A DNA stretch of 63,803 nucleotides, the filler included, from an uncultured Methanosarcinales archaeon (GTDB lineage: Archaea > Nanobdellota > Nanobdellia > Woesearchaeales > B54-G15), in NCBI GenBank assembly GCA_964519225.1. It is 4 parts of 4 records of this genome, joined end to end, with 100 filler letters (N's around TTAATTAATTAA, not from the genome) between each part and the next. Parts side by side here need not be neighbours in the genome. Positions count along the whole stretch, not along the records: positions 26,864 to 57,043 come from CAZFJK010000009.1; positions 57,144 to 63,803 come from CAZFJK010000029.1; 2 more parts are not named here. One strand, written 5' to 3'. Made by a program: the position numbers. Of this stretch, positions 57,001 through 63,000 are shown one piece after another. Positions within the stretch are counted from its first letter, which is position 1, and the number at the start of each line of letters is the position of its first letter.

Positions 57001-60000
57001 CACAATAAAAAAACTATCCTACAGGAATCCATCAAACGTGAAANNNNNNNNNNNNNNNNNNNNNNNNNNNNNNNNNNNNNNNNNNNNTTAATTAATTAAN
57101 NNNNNNNNNNNNNNNNNNNNNNNNNNNNNNNNNNNNNNNNNNNAAAATGCTGGTCGGTGTTGTTGGAAAGACAAATACAGGAAAAAGTACTTTTTTCAAG
57201 GCAGCTACGCTTGCTGAAATAGAAATAGCCAATAGGCCATTCGTTACGATAAAACCACATCATGGCTGCGGATTTGTTAAAGTTGAATGCCCTGAAAAAG
57301 ATTTTGGTGTTAAGTGTAATCCAAGAACTGGTTTTTGCTTAGAAGGAAAAAGGTTTGTTCCAATTGATTTACTTGATGTTGCTGGGCTCGTACCAGGAGC
57401 TCATAAGGGCTTTGGGTTGGGCAATAAATTTTTAGATGATTTAAGACAGGCGGACGTTCTTATTCATGTTGTTGATGTTAGCGGCGGTACTAATGAAAAG
57501 GGTGAGCCAGTTAAACCTTTTAGCTATGATCCATTAAAGGATGTTGTTTTTCTAGAAAACGAAATCGACCTCTGGTTTTATGGTTTGCTGAAAAAGGATT
57601 GGCACAGAATTGTTAGAGAGATAGAACTGCAAAACGTTGAGGCAAAAGTGGCTTTGGCTGAAAAATTCTCTGGCTTGAAGATAAGTGAAGAAATGATTGA
57701 TGCTGCTCTGAGAGTAATAGACAAGAGATTATCTCGATTTGATGATGAGGACTTACTTCATTTTGCAAAAATATTGCGGAAAAAGAGCAAACCGATGATT
57801 ATAGCAGCAAATAAAGCAGACGTTGAGGGTACTGAAGAGAATATCAAAAGATTGAAGGAAAGATTTAAAGATTACATCATAGTTCCATGTTCTGCTGAAA
57901 GTGAACTTGCTTTACGAGAAGCAGCAAAGCACGGCTTTATTAATTATATTCCTGGAGAAAATGATTTTGCTATTGTTTCTGAAAATAAATTAAGTGATGA
58001 GCAGAAGCGAGCGCTGGCATTCATAAAAGAAAAGGTTTTACACAGGTTTGGAAGTACTGGCGTTCAAGCAGTTATTGATGCTGCGGTTTACTCCCTGCTC
58101 AAGCAGATGGCCGTTTTTCCAGTTGCAACAAGACAGCTTAGTGATAAAGAAGGAAATATTTTGCCTGATTGTTTCATTGTTCCGCAAGGAATGACTGCAG
58201 GAGAATTCGCCTTTAAGATTCATACTGACATTGGTAAGAATTTTATCAAAGCGTACGATTTGCGAACCAAAAAGTTCGTTGGGAAGGATTACCAGTTAAA
58301 TCACAAAGATGTCATACAGATAATAACAAAGTAAGAACGTAAAGGTTTTTATTCTTCTTTCTTCTCTTTTGAAAAAGCAGAAATCAAATCTATTATGTAT
58401 TTTCCTTCTCCTATCTTGAAGACGATCGGTTCTTTTTTGAAAAGATGGACGAGGTCAATCTCATATTTTCCTGGTTTTGTAACGCGAATGCTTTCAAGAT
58501 CAAGGATTACTGGTTCTTCTTGTTCTGGTGTTATACCGAGCACATCAAACACGTCTTTTTCTATTTGTTTTTTCTCTTCTTCATTAAGATTAGAAGTAAT
58601 CCGTTGCATTGCCTCGAGCTTTTCCTTCTTAATAAAGAAAAATAGCTTTCCACCGCAGTTAGCGCAGCCCTTCAAAATAGTTGCATCACCATCATCGTAA
58701 AGAGTTCCGCATCTGACGCATTGGTGGGGCATTCTTTATCTTTTTTTATTGTTCCGTCTTTTGTTCCTTTTGTTTTTTTGATTTGTTTTTTCTAACGTCA
58801 GCAATTCTATTTTATTTGGGTCTTTTTTAATCTGTTTCACTATATTTGCAGGACCGATCACTGTAAATCCTGTCCTATTTCCAAGCAAAGCATTTATAAT
58901 CCTGTTTTTGAAGCGTTTAAGTCCGGTTAAATTTTCTATTGTTGGATTTATCACAGCAAGTTCTATACCTTTAAAATCCTCATTTATTTCTTCCATTGTT
59001 GCTTTGATTAACTCTGCTTCTTCTTCTTTTTTCAATCTGCCTTGAAGCAAAACGATCTTATCCTCTTTTGCAAGATTGAGTAGTTTTCTTATTCTTCCGA
59101 CTGAGCTAAGCGCCATGATTTCTTCGTAAGGAACAATTTGGAGCATTACCATTTTTATTCTTTTATTTTACGAGCTTGAATAGTGCTGAGTAAAAATTGT
59201 CTATGTTTTTGCCATATTTTGCACTTATGCCAATAACAGGATATTGAGGAAACGCTGCTTGTACCTTTTTGATGTTCGCCTTCTTTAGATCGGTTTTGTT
59301 TGCTGCTATCAACACAGGAATGTTTCTTGCTGCCAGATTACCTAAAATTGTAATGTTTACTTGGTTGTATGGATCTTTAGTTGAATCGAGAACAACTATA
59401 ACAGCGTCCATTTCATCGAGCCATTTTATTGCATCGATTACTCCTTTGGTTGCTTCCTTGGCTCGCTTTTTAGCTTCTTTTTCTGGCAATCCCGCTTTAA
59501 TAAAATCTTCAAAGTCTATTTTCGTAGCTATGCCTGGAGTATCAACAAGGTTAAATTGAAGTGTTTTTCCTTTATGCTCAAGTTTTATTTGTTCTTTTAT
59601 CTGTATTTCCCTTGTTTCGTGAGGTATTCTGCTAACTTGGCCCATTTCTTCGCCGAGCCAATCGATGCATATTTTATTTGCTAAGGTTGTTTTTCCGGCA
59701 TTCGGCGGCCCATATAAACCTAATTTTATAGAATCCCGACGTGAGAACCATCCGAAAAGGAATCTTCTCAACAATGCTAAGATACTCATTGCATCCCCTC
59801 TTTTTTCTTTTTGACTAATTTAGGTTTATTTAAATTTTATTATGATTGAATTTTCAAACATTCATTAACCAAATTTTTTACTCGCTCTATGTCATCTTTT
59901 GTTACTTCTTTTCTACTTTCTATTAATGCTGATGCACCGCACAGCCTCACCAAGCCAACAACGAATCTTGGAGTTATTTTTGTTACGAATTGTTTTTCAT

Positions 60001-63000
60001 TCAACTTTAGATGTTTTACAAAATCAACTATTCTTCGCTTGTTTGCTTCTGTAAAGCGAGGTTCTTGTGGCATGTTTGCCTGAATCCATTTTATGTATTC
60101 GCTAATAAAAAATTTATCTGCTGCTGTTATGCTCTTTGTTTTTTTCTCGATCACATGTTCTGTTATTTCCATAAATCTTTTAACGCTCGGTTTTTTAATT
60201 ATAAATATAAAATGAAATCTTGAAAGGAGTGCTGACTCAAAAGGCATTTGCTTTTTAATGGCTTCAATTGACGTGCCTTTAAATTCATCGTGGGTTGGAT
60301 TTGCAGTAGCGAGAATTTTTACCCTGGCATCGAATTTGAAATGTTTTCCACCTTTATCATAAGTAACAAAGCCTTTCTCCATCGCATTATAGAGACCTGC
60401 ATAATCCTCTTTTCGCATTAGATTAAGCTCGTCGATTACGCATAAGCCGTCATTAGCCATAGGAAGTAGGCCAGGAATTACTTCATTGCCTTTTACAGTG
60501 ACTACAAGACCAGCACCACTCGTTCCACTACCAAGACCATAGGCTGAGATAGGAGCAAGTTCTGAAGCAGATCTTGCTATGTCTGTTTTGCCAGTTCCGG
60601 GATCGCCGATCAAAAGCAAATGGATTGGTTGCTTTGATACAAGCTGCAATGCTATTGCTTTTTTTATTGCATCATAGCCGGAGATTTGCGGAGCTATTGC
60701 TGTTGATATCTTGCTTAGTGCTGATTCTGAGAAAGATTTGAATTTTTCTTCGAATACATATTGCTTTAATTTGGTGTTTATTTCGTGTATCTTTTCTTGA
60801 TATATTTGTGTTTGTTCATCATGTTTAAGCTTCAGCTGGAATATGCTAAAGGATTCTATTATTGTGGTGTTATATGTTACGCGTATCAAAGAAGCGACTT
60901 CCTTCTTAAGAAGTTTTTTGACGAGTTTTTGTTCCTTCTTTTCGAGCGCTTTTTCAATGCTTTCATCTAATTTTATTTTTTTAAAGAACATGGACTCATA
61001 AAGAATTTATTGATTAAAAAATATTTTGTTTTTTTGGATAGGTTTAAAAATATAGAAAGAACTTAATGATAAAAGAGGTGATAAAATGAAAGCTATTTGG
61101 AAGGGCGCTATCGCTTTCGGACTTGTTAATATTCCTGTTAAGCTTTATTCTGTCGCTGAACCTAAAGCGATAAGTTTTAGATTGCTTTGCGGGAAATGTC
61201 ATTCACCATTGCGCTATAAAAGATGGTGTGACAAATGTAAAAAAGAGGTTAGCTGGGAAAACGTGGTTAAAGGGGTTGAATATGCAAAGGGAAAGTATTT
61301 TGTCGTTACAAGAGATGTGTTGAAAAAATTAAGGCCTGAAAAGAGTGATTTAATTGAGATTATGTTTTTCACTGATAAGGGAAGCATAGATCCAATTTAT
61401 GTAGGCAAGAGATATTATGTTGTTCCTAATAAAGCTGGCGAAAAGGCGTATTTTCTCCTGAAAGAAGTTTTGCAGGCAACAGCTAAAATAGCAATTGGAA
61501 AATTTGTCATGAAAGAGAAACAGTATCTCTGTGCGATTGAAAGCTATAAGCAGGGATTGCTTTTAACAACACTAAACTATGCTTATGAAGTTAGACCCAT
61601 TGATTTGATTGAAGAATTAAAAGTTTTGCCAAAGCTCGGAAAAAAAGAACTTGCGTTGGCTAAAGAACTGATAAAGAAATTATACGAAGAAGAGTTTGAC
61701 ATTAATGCTTTTAAGGATGAGTTCGCTGAAGGGCTTAAGGAGCTTATTAAAAAGATGATTAAAGGAGAAAAAATCAAAGTGAAGAAAAAAGAAAAGAAAA
61801 AGAAACTTACGCTTGTTCAGGCTTTAAAGGCAAGTATTGGTAAATGAGAACGGCTATAATAAGTTTGCATCGAAGATTAGAAAAGCTCTTTTCTGACATC
61901 TACGATTTTTACGCGATCTTTGTACTTTATGTATATGACTTGATCACCGACCTTGGCATTGTTCTCTTTTAATAGGTTTAAATCAAATTCAGCTTCATAG
62001 GAATCGTAGGTTTGATCATCAATAATTACAGCATGTTTCTTTTTTAGTTCGATAAGTTGAGCAACGCCACGTTTGAATGGTAGATCCACTTCTTTATCAC
62101 ATGGTTCATTTAACTTGTATTGTTTACCTGAAAATATACCTTCGGCTAACAAAATTACTGAATTTTCTTTCAATTCGACGTTTTTTACGACGCATGGCTC
62201 GTCCGAATGGACTATATAGTATCCTCGTTTTACGTCTTTCAATTTGACCATTAGAACATCACAAGAATATATGACAAAAGAGTATTTAAAATTTTCCGAT
62301 TAAATCAAAAATCTCTCTTTTGACATTTTAACTTAAGCTTAAACTAAAAATTTAAAAATGTAATGAACATTAAAGGATTGGGGTGGTTAAATGTTAGCAT
62401 ACGTGTTAATTGCGCTAAAAACATGCGATGAAAGTAAAGTGTTGGATAGCCTAAAACAATTGCCTGAAGTAGAGGAAGCGCACGTTCTTTTTGGTGAATG
62501 GGATATTATAGCAAAAGTGAATGTTAACGGCACAGAGGACTTAGCAGCATTTATGATTGAAAAAGTGAGAACTCTGCCTGAAGTTAAGCTTTCAAGCACA
62601 ATGATTGTAGCTAAAAGTTAATCTTAGATGATTAAAGCAAAGAAAAAGAGGATAATCACCAAAACGAGGTCTAAAAGAATTTCGTGCAGTGTTGGCGCAA
62701 ATAAAAGCCCAAACCATTTTGACTTCTTTTGAATTTCTTTTGGCTTGAAATGCACGTAGTCTAGAAACATATGAGTATAGTAAGCTATTGCTATAGCAAG
62801 GGCAGTAGTGCTATTTAGAAATGCAATGAAAAAAATTAGGCCTGAAACCACAAGAAAGCCAGGTAGATGATGAATAAATGTTCTTTCGTGTTCCTTTCCT
62901 AGTACAGCATTATTCCAGCAAACTCTGAAATTAGGATTTTTCTTTTTTACAAGATGACACAAGAAATGGTCTAAATCGAGTAATACAGAAAGAATTGCAA

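Follow-up and report, generated by a model that had tools for sequence, protein, structure and literature searches.

The window, a 63,803-nucleotide stretch of archaeal DNA, encodes a 43-kDa AAA+ ATPase of the MCM clade (hereafter short MCM), followed on the same strand, after a 50-nt gap, by oapA (Table 1). A TATA-like element at leaderless-type spacing supports the start codon of the short-MCM gene, and similar elements stand upstream in 16 of 23 relatives under a loose pattern.

Table 1. Features of the short-MCM locus (positions count along the window)
Feature	Position	Strand	Basis
TATA-like element 22–30 nt upstream of the short-MCM start codon, leaderless-type spacing	61013..61021	-	sequence; inferred
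Short MCM-clade AAA+ ATPase gene, 383 aa	59840..60991	-	ORF, Pfam, model
Family-specific N-terminal module (N-module), residues 1–79	60755..60991	-	AF2 model, profile comparison, column profile
Walker A GDPGTGKT (K135 = Sso K346)	60584..60607	-	alignment
Helix-2 insert (H2I), six residues shorter; S158 (= Sso T369) kept; wedge position N169 = Sso Y386	60470..60538	-	alignment
Walker B CVIDELN (D187/E188 = Sso D404/E405)	60422..60442	-	alignment
K213, pre-sensor-1 (PS1) hairpin lysine (= Sso K430)	60353..60355	-	K in 60/60
Arginine finger R258 (= Sso R473)	60218..60220	-	60/60 rows
MCM lid, residues 296–379, including sensor-2 R342; the protein stops here, without a winged helix	59855..60106	-	Pfam, alignment
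TATA-like TTTAAATA of dipA/oapA, within the 50-nt gap	59827..59834	-	sequence
dipA/arcoA/arvA/oapA, small GTPase	59163..59789	-	neighbor
dipB/oapB	58736..59152	-	Pfam OapB, E 1e-18
dipC/oapC	58349..58732	-	Pfam OapC, E 2e-28

A Pfam search recovered only the motor of an MCM, namely the MCM domain (PF00493, residues 84–283, E 5e-39, 134 bits) and the MCM lid (PF17855, residues 296–379, 30 bits), with no match to MCM_OB or MCM_N in the 383 residues. The motor motifs are Walker A (GDPGTGKT, 129–136), Walker B (IDELNL, 186–191), Asn231, Arg258 (SRF) and Arg342 (TPR). Within the first 130 residues, a CxxC motif is found in none of 60 aligned short-MCM sequences, compared with 43 of 45 full-length MCMs. 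The chain extends only 40–48 residues beyond sensor 2, against a median of 131 in full-length MCMs, so the C-terminal winged helix is absent. Profile–profile homology to full-length MCM begins only at residue 80. These results confirm the survey's finding of a conserved chromosomal AAA-only MCM paralog that lacks the OB/Zn tier and the winged helix and carries a short new N-terminal segment, here 79 residues long. Its separateness from the replicative MCM also holds. The replicative MCM of this genome (C3:18482-22120) is 1212 aa long, an intein-like insert included, and provides the sole MCM_OB match, a pattern repeated in all 4 of the other carrier genomes checked; short MCM scores 167 bits against the replicative-MCM family NF040949 (NCBIfam), under the cut-off of 940 bits. 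In a tree, short MCMs form their own clade on a long branch separate from their hosts' replicative MCMs.

The AlphaFold 2 model of short MCM has a pLDDT of 92.8 overall and of 86–98 across residues 11–90, and the best 11 matches in a structural search were all MCMs. Archaeal replicative MCM (Saccharolobus solfataricus (Sso) 3F9V/4FDG/6MII; M. acidophilum 8Q67) has the AAA+ core and lid fold in common with it (Z 31.6, rmsd 4.3, 301 residues aligned), as well as Walker A and B, sensor 1, the arginine finger, sensor 2, the PS1 lysine and the H2I hydroxyl; the PS1 β-hairpin and helix-2 insert are both present in the model (strands 164–173 and 208–221). Short MCM departs from it in lacking the A/Zn/OB N-tier, winged helix, exterior hairpin and aromatic wedge, in its H2I shortened by six residues, in the H418Y and Q423K changes, in its new N-terminal module, and in being non-universal and sometimes ATPase-dead. 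The engineered PfMCM-AAA (PDB 4R7Z; Z 29.9, rmsd 2.5) is likewise a motor without N-tier or winged helix, but this protein and the Sso core (PMC1807962) were truncated in the laboratory and still have the exterior hairpin and an H2I of full length, whereas short MCM occurs naturally, as a family in which a specific N-module precedes the motor. Methanopyrus kandleri MCM2 (PDB 3F8T; Z 29.8), whose entry has 459 residues, is a natural shortened homolog too and is reported to keep N-tier subdomains, unlike short MCM. Most short-MCM members, unlike this protein, retain all catalytic residues. M. kandleri MCM2 is reportedly inactive.

Beyond the MCMs, a related fold without an MCM N-tier is found in the H2I-clade AAA+ proteins ComM/YifB, RavA/MoxR and BchI (Z 16.9–20.5), although short MCM scores far higher to MCM and has the MCM-specific motifs and lid. 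A MoxR/RavA-like enzyme that takes apart Dip/FtsZ-type protein assemblies rather than acting on DNA would suit the rank of RavA, BchI and MoxR as the next folds (Z 17–20, N-tier likewise absent), the shortened pore loops and the adjoining dipABC genes. We consider such a protein remodeler quite unlikely, since the nearest matches in fold and in sequence are without exception MCMs, the lysine and serine that bind DNA phosphate are invariant, and the loci show no recurrent vWA partner gene.

Residue equivalences to Sso MCM were assigned by alignment, with roles taken from PMC6629641. Lys135, Thr136, Asp187, Glu188, Asn231, Arg258, Arg342 and Lys213 are invariant in 60 of 60 short-MCM rows, and position 158 is Ser or Thr in every row; the reported retention of Walker A, Walker B, sensor 1 and the arginine finger in relatives applies throughout the alignment. 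The Sso equivalent of Lys213, Lys430, is an essential DNA contact (PMC6629641). Other elements are lost. A 12-residue deletion has removed the exterior hairpin with its RGD arginine, which brings Walker A 12 residues nearer to the helix before it than in full-length MCM. The Walker A-to-B spacing is 57 in all 60 short MCMs versus 62–65 in full-length proteins, and the wedge position is aromatic in 0 of 60 versus 43 of 45. An aromatic wedge is linked to origin melting and is not needed for unwinding (PMC13201583). The sensor-3 residues differ from Sso MCM (His418 to Tyr201, Gln423 to Lys206); in view of these changes and the missing RGD arginine, ATPase activity is likely from the sequence, yet not certain. 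The isolated Sso AAA+ domain retains ATPase and helicase activity and requires the N-half for processivity (PMC1807962), and the two can interact in trans.

Short MCM was found in 89 of 301 genomes of the order Woesearchaeales (30%) and 48 of 136 families, one copy each, in line with the survey's estimate of about a quarter. Close matches (E<1e-70; open frames of 289–499 aa; next scores E≥2e-46) account for 77 genomes, and a wider profile added 12 divergent copies; a single-protein scan of the genome contigs gave no match, and an alignment-based scan found the family. No description of it turned up in the literature searched. Length is uniform, mean column identity is 52%, and identity within genera is 80–84%, compared with 73–78% for neighboring genes, so the family evolves as slowly as its surroundings. 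Across 80 loci the neighbors are housekeeping genes with no provirus or plasmid setting, and no relatives were found in viral contigs; phage and plasmid matches are about 30% identical or less and are full-length or split MCMs. Additional, likewise non-essential MCM paralogs occur in Thermococcus, Methanococcales, Halobacteria, and archaeal viruses and plasmids, but the examples compared are full length (674–777 aa) or split with the N-part adjoining, and they group with full-length MCMs, unlike short MCM. That the gene is a fragment, split gene, pseudogene or virus/plasmid debris might be suspected because mobile elements are a frequent source of additional archaeal MCMs (PMC3914693), viruses have short proteins resembling MCM (Atlas) and the TPV1 MCM is split. 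The conservation, spread and setting just described, a GC content (35.5%) equal to that of the contig and the absence, in all 5 genomes examined, of a stand-alone MCM_OB gene largely refute this account and make it very improbable, though the ancestor may have had a remote viral origin. We regard short MCM as an old, separate, chromosomal MCM subfamily residing among housekeeping genes.

All 12 divergent copies have intact frames in which the catalytic motifs (Walker A and B, sensor 1, arginine finger, sensor 2) are not intact and are thus ATPase-dead; they come from only 6 families, and none directly precedes dipA. Short MCM is dispensable, having been lost in most genomes and, in several lineages, apparently reduced to an ATPase-dead scaffold. 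Mixed rings of active and dead copies were considered and set aside for now: among the 150 matches listed, no genome has both, though G118, G220 and G252 have second matches outside that list.

The three genes downstream of short MCM belong to the Dip/Arco/Arv/Oap system; dipABC, arcoABC, arvABC and oapABC are one set, described in 2026 preprints as a Min-like oscillator for placement of the FtsZ ring. DipB is a DNA-binding protein for which a part in segregation has been left open. The main texts of the three Arv, Dip and Arco papers mention neither an MCM nor a fourth component. On the same strand, dipA lies directly downstream of short MCM in 16 of 58 genomes of the order (12 families) and in 26 of 71 retrieved loci; the two are on different contigs in 39 of the 58 genomes. 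DipB/OapB is found in 267 of 301 genomes and short MCM in 89, so the Dip system works without short MCM, and with a base rate of 89% co-occurrence with dipB is uninformative. A TATA-like element precedes dipA in 20 of 23 relatives, compared with 134 of 1150 coding positions. Of 20 loci taken from genomes that lack a close short MCM, 5 have the c8/c9 genes no more than one gene away from dipA; in 14 of 75 loci these genes stand divergently beside short MCM. With c8/c9–dipA as an ancestral block, the adjacency may be inertia; it appears to reflect ancestral synteny with separate promoters and is no proof of partnership. In two further lineages, ftsZ lies within two genes of short MCM.

The survey had placed the gene near origin-associated oapABC genes. 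The adjacency stands, and the origin link falls away: oapABC is a division oscillator, and no cdc6 was found near short MCM or oapB in the 10 genomes searched for Cdc6_C. On the single contig of G097, short MCM and oapB are 95 kb and 290 kb from cdc6; oapB is 104 kb from cdc6 in G371, and in G194 a second cdc6-like gene is 127 kb away from it. In the remaining cases cdc6 and these genes are on different contigs. The replicative MCM has cdc6 within 16 kb in three genomes (G000, the genome of the window, G017 and G078). The term "origin-associated" is itself a Pfam label only. A regulator of the replicative MCM or of initiation, one that forms joint assemblies with the full-length ring or loads or unloads it, with dead copies as pseudo-subunits, would be consistent with the retained MCM ring-interface fold (Z 29.9–31.6), the persistence of dead yet intact copies in 12 genomes and the trans interaction of the Sso halves. 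This role also seems improbable to us: in the genomes checked, short MCM is never beside the replicative MCM or cdc6, it sits on a long separate branch with family-specific trans residues (Tyr201, Lys206), and the adjoining system serves division and is no origin factor.

Repair is the main rival to a division role. In that case the protein would be a soluble motor of repair or recombination, resembling MCM8-9 or ComM, and would unwind or migrate short branched DNA in concert with two products of the same ancestral block, the HerA-like helicase and Mre11. A HerA-like gene (NCBIfam HerA E 1e-24, below cut-off) occurs in 24 of 80 loci, and several copies, active as well as dead (L070, L130, L167, L169, L177, L178), have Mre11 or HerA no more than three genes away. 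The residue evidence for a DNA-gripping ring fits this proposal equally, isolated AAA+ MCM cores are reported to accept a wide range of substrates, and dispensability suits an accessory repair factor. However, HerA and Mre11 also flank dipA where there is no close short MCM (L143, L148, L153), HerA is mostly divergent with c8/c9 intervening, and the basic amphipathic N-terminus is left unexplained. Repair is a somewhat unlikely function, in our estimate.

The N-module comprises a basic amphipathic start, two helices, a β-hairpin (33–55) and the beginning of a long helix (62–98) that enters the AAA+ domain. Sequence comparison detects no homology to the MCM N-tier. HMMER alignments reach weakly into the β-hairpin, which was considered as an OB-fold remnant and not accepted given the profile–profile start at residue 80. 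The structural searches used the whole protein, so the absence of the N-module among matches is no evidence of a new fold; an Atlas search with residues 1–95 gave a top score of 0.76 and no lead, and none of 263 candidate longer proteins bears the module, a count of little weight. The family consensus begins MGFxDLIRRLRPL, and the column profile follows a hydrophobic i, i+3, i+4, i+7 pattern and then R-P-L. A lipid-binding discriminant exceeds 0.68 in 80 of 100 short MCMs; the corresponding shares are 16% among 55 full-length MCMs and 42% among 262 background ORFs. The hydrophobic moment on its own does not exceed that of full-length MCM N-termini (0.56 versus 0.58, p 0.6) and falls short of the 0.79 of DipA. 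The helix of the window protein is shortened and scores poorly. For the family, the putative basic amphipathic first helix would most likely bind the membrane.

Taken as a whole, short MCM may be an accessory, non-replicative, membrane-tethered DNA translocase that handles the chromosome at division, to which we assign a probability of roughly 35%; that it is an active, non-replicative, DNA-gripping ring is probable. Subunits would form an MCM-type ring with ATP sites between neighbors, as the invariant arginine finger and sensor 2 suggest, and the PS1 lysine and H2I serine would grip the DNA backbone while the ring moves along or pumps DNA. Because it lacks N-tier, winged helix, exterior hairpin, aromatic wedge and H2I tip, no origin loading, duplex melting or processive fork-helicase role is expected of it. 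With the motor and DNA-gripping loops kept and the initiation parts lost, the protein probably moves DNA for another job, perhaps at division. The N-module would substitute for the N-tier as a targeting device, its first helix directed to the membrane, and the likeliest job would be clearing or anchoring DNA during FtsZ division, beside the Dip/Arco oscillator; ATPase-dead copies could serve as scaffold.

To our knowledge, the N-tier has been held inseparable from cellular MCMs, and most AAA-only forms described have been engineered. Short MCM is a natural, order-wide family that has shed the initiation features (N-tier, winged helix, exterior hairpin, melting wedge) and kept the translocation residues. 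It offers a way to tell the parts of an MCM that are needed for initiation from those needed for translocation, with the repeated switch to ATPase-dead intact copies as natural controls, and is readily testable given its small size, confident model and many homologs. Coordination of the chromosome with FtsZ is an open question even in Haloferax; should short MCM have a role in division, it would give initial access to this coordination in small DPANN cells. A more specific and doubtful version would make it a membrane-tethered DNA pump or nucleoid-positioning ATPase working with Dip/Arco at the FtsZ ring of DPANN, a functional analog of FtsK or Noc derived from the replicative helicase, whose dead members are static DNA–membrane anchors. 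Searches found no relatives of the N-terminus of one member, P0149, and no context for it or the sister sequence P0190; alone among 279 members screened, P0149 carries two hydrophobic helices in place of the amphipathic N-terminus.

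The survey's finding of a motor-only MCM paralogue beside a replicative MCM held: the frame on contig C29 contains only the Pfam MCM and lid matches, and a separate MCM, the only other one in this genome (G000), is encoded near cdc6 and polymerase D genes. The AlphaFold model of the short MCM (mean pLDDT 92.8, 60-row alignment as input) matched MCM structures best, with Z scores of 31.6 to 8Q67 and 29.9 to 4R7Z. RavA followed at 20.5; a role as a protein remodeller is nonetheless improbable in our estimate. The replicative MCM carries an intein-like insert of about 540 residues with C...HN ends inside its helix-2 insert; a related genome (G021) has a 1144-aa frame. 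The third PF00493 match in G000 belongs to a run of MoxR ATPase, DUF58-like and vWA genes, as recognized by sequence.

Coordinates of the short MCM, other MCM-type matches and neighbouring genes (C, contigs of G000; L, loci of relatives)
Feature	Location	Strand	Description
Short MCM	window 59840-60991	-	383 aa; Pfam MCM 84-283, MCM lid 296-379
Ku, bacterial-type	window 61086-61847	+	Pfam Ku, E 3e-41
eIF5A-like KOW protein	window 61877-62251	-	124 aa; Pfam matches sub-threshold only
Replicative MCM	C3:18482-22120		1212 aa
Third PF00493 match	C5:41667-44534		MoxR ATPase run
c8	L054:11836-12399		~185 aa
c9	L052:615-1316		~234 aa; PIN-like start by eye
c114	L070:9541-10104		185-aa membrane protein, cysteine-rich loop

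Residues were matched by alignment to Saccharolobus solfataricus (Sso) MCM, with roles taken from the available portions of PMC6629641. Sso K346, D404, E405, N448, R473, and R560 correspond to K135, D187, E188, N231, R258, and R342, which are invariant in 60/60 rows, as is the DNA contact K213 (Sso K430); a second contact, Sso T369, is Ser or Thr at position 158 in all 60. Sensor 3 has changed, with H418 replaced by Y201 (60/60 rows) and Q423 by K206 (59/60). The exterior hairpin is absent through a 12-residue deletion, the helix-2 insert (H2I) is six residues shorter than in full-length MCMs, and the protein terminates 40-48 residues past sensor 2. At the H2I wedge position (Sso Y386), 0/60 short MCMs have an aromatic residue, compared with 43/45 full-length MCMs. 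As far as the available portions of the following papers go, polar residues required for unwinding and the aromatic wedge for origin melting form two distinct classes (PMC13201583), exactly those that the short MCM keeps and loses; the exterior hairpin is linked to DNA binding and helicase activity (PMC2933578), complete H2I deletion uncouples ATPase activity from unwinding (PMC4619765), and the isolated Sso AAA+ core has ATPase and helicase activity without processivity (PMC1807962). Taken together, the kept and lost features and this earlier work suggest a ring that would grip and move DNA but not initiate replication. Judged by sequence and model, the short MCM probably works like an MCM motor, yet is not a replicative MCM. 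This residue-level divide, with translocation features kept and initiation features lost, is new. Deployment of the ring as a repair motor is conceivable, if rather unlikely.

Profile homology to full-length MCMs runs from residue 80 on; residues 1-79 are modeled as two helices, a β-hairpin, and the onset of a long helix. The family consensus begins MGFxDLIRRLRPL, which is basic and hydrophobic at i, i+3, i+4, and i+7. A lipid-binding discriminant exceeded its cut-off of 0.68 in 80/100 short MCMs and 28/28 DipA proteins, against 16% of 55 full-length MCMs and 42% of 262 background ORFs; by hydrophobic moment alone, short-MCM N-termini were not higher than full-length starts. The window protein has a shortened helix with a poor score. 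In P0149, a deep-branching, motif-intact singleton represented by one sequence on a 3.5-kb contig, two predicted transmembrane helices replace the amphipathic helix (1/279 members screened). The N-terminal helix is likewise a new observation, and its possible membrane binding is a lead rather than a result.

The survey had also placed the gene near "origin-associated" oapABC. That label does not apply here, since neither oapB nor the short MCM lay close to cdc6, which is only a proxy for the origin, in 10 genomes checked. According to the available portions of the sources, oapABC has been renamed arvABC (PMC10927574) and, as dipABC, is a Min-like oscillator that places the FtsZ ring; DipA attaches to the membrane by its N-terminal amphipathic helix, and DipB has DNA-binding activity as well (bioRxiv 10.64898/2026.05.19.726155; 10.64898/2026.07.23.738820). 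MCM is absent from the main texts of all three papers as available, and their supplements may show gene neighbourhoods. Our leading reading, tentative at a probability of about 0.35, is that the short MCM may be a tethered translocase acting at division.

Neighbourhoods were compared in the best 80 of 190 relatives' loci, a sample biased toward close kin. There, dipA lies directly downstream on the same strand in 26/71 loci with room, a conserved pair (c8/c9) adjoins divergently in 14/75, a HerA-like gene is present in 24/80, and ftsZ lies within 1.5 kb in 5/80; in a second family, ftsZ is at most two genes away. Two FtsZ genes were found in 5/5 carriers checked. Across the 58 order genomes with both positions listed (a tally entered by hand that includes G121), dipA is directly downstream in 16, from 12 families, and on a separate contig in 39. 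As a control, which is new, we examined 20 dipA loci from genomes without a close copy, three of them too short and one from a genome with an ATPase-dead copy elsewhere. Because c8/c9 is within one gene of dipA in five of these, the HerA-c9-c8/dipABC block is ancestral and the short MCM occupies its middle slot. Dip works without the short MCM, as OapB was found in 267/301 order genomes. A TATA-like element of its own precedes dipA in 20/23 relatives and the short MCM in 16/23 (coding control, 134/1150, not AT-matched).

A single-protein query gave E<1e-70 matches in 77/301 order genomes, G000 included. A profile built from 55 members, some close and some divergent, found one short copy each in at least 89/301 genomes from 48/136 families, a lower bound counted from 150 listed rows; G121 and G205, which are unpublished, are counted in both figures. 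Many families (f11, f44, f47, f91, f96, f110) mix carriers with well-assembled non-carriers, which points to repeated loss. Beyond the order, short copies occurred only in G472 and G465, from one family, among the matches listed for a 401-genome phylum sample, and source names attached to relatives were Woesearchaeota or Nanoarchaeia. Extra MCMs are regarded as mainly derived from mobile elements (PMC3914693, available portions). No relative was found in the viral contigs searched; phage and plasmid matches reached about 30% identity or less, and the four inspected were full-length or split MCMs. Half of a split gene is ruled out, as the sole MCM_OB match lies within the full-length MCM in 5/5 carriers.

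A tree of AAA domains was built from 61 rows, with full-length and close rows sampled at random and divergent rows left out; its bootstrap was not fully settled. In it, the 22 short MCMs formed one side of a branch (98/75). Together with three further sequences lacking the N-terminal OB/Zn half, they were set apart from every full-length or viral MCM (100/99), while six host replicative MCMs grouped inside the full-length set (100/98). This separation indicates that the family is old and did not arise recently by truncation of the host's own MCM. It is a real, apparently undescribed variant of the MCM family; we found no description in the literature, though most subscription papers fell outside coverage. 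The three sisters (P0190, P0244, P0197), MCM-like proteins 300-372 aa long, are without the exterior hairpin too; viral clusters of similar size are listed in the Atlas.

None of the 12 divergent genome copies, all of which were inspected, retains GK[T/S] together with the Walker B DE pair. Their open frames span 357-402 aa, one interrupted by a contig end. They evolve faster than their neighbours (34-41% versus 57-72%, one genus), but close copies change no faster than the genes around them (80-84% versus 73-78%). That the frames stay open over such divergence implies either a durable role without catalysis or a gradual decay under weak selection. That the short MCM is debris is very improbable; that it regulates the replicative MCM is doubtful. 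On a 140-row quick tree with labels assigned by eye, the label of divergent members has to change six times or more across well-supported branches, and these repeated ATPase-dead forms are a new observation.

Among the neighbours, c8/c9 is conserved order-wide beside dipABC and a HerA-like gene and matched no named family in Pfam or NCBIfam. In the window, Ku is the divergent neighbour and occupies the c8/c9 slot, an arrangement seen in none of the 80 related loci. LigD_N gave no match in G000, and LigD_Prim-Pol a weak one, likely the primase. The KOW protein recurs in the same block in 10/81 loci, and in at least eight loci c114 or its kin comes one or two genes after the short MCM.
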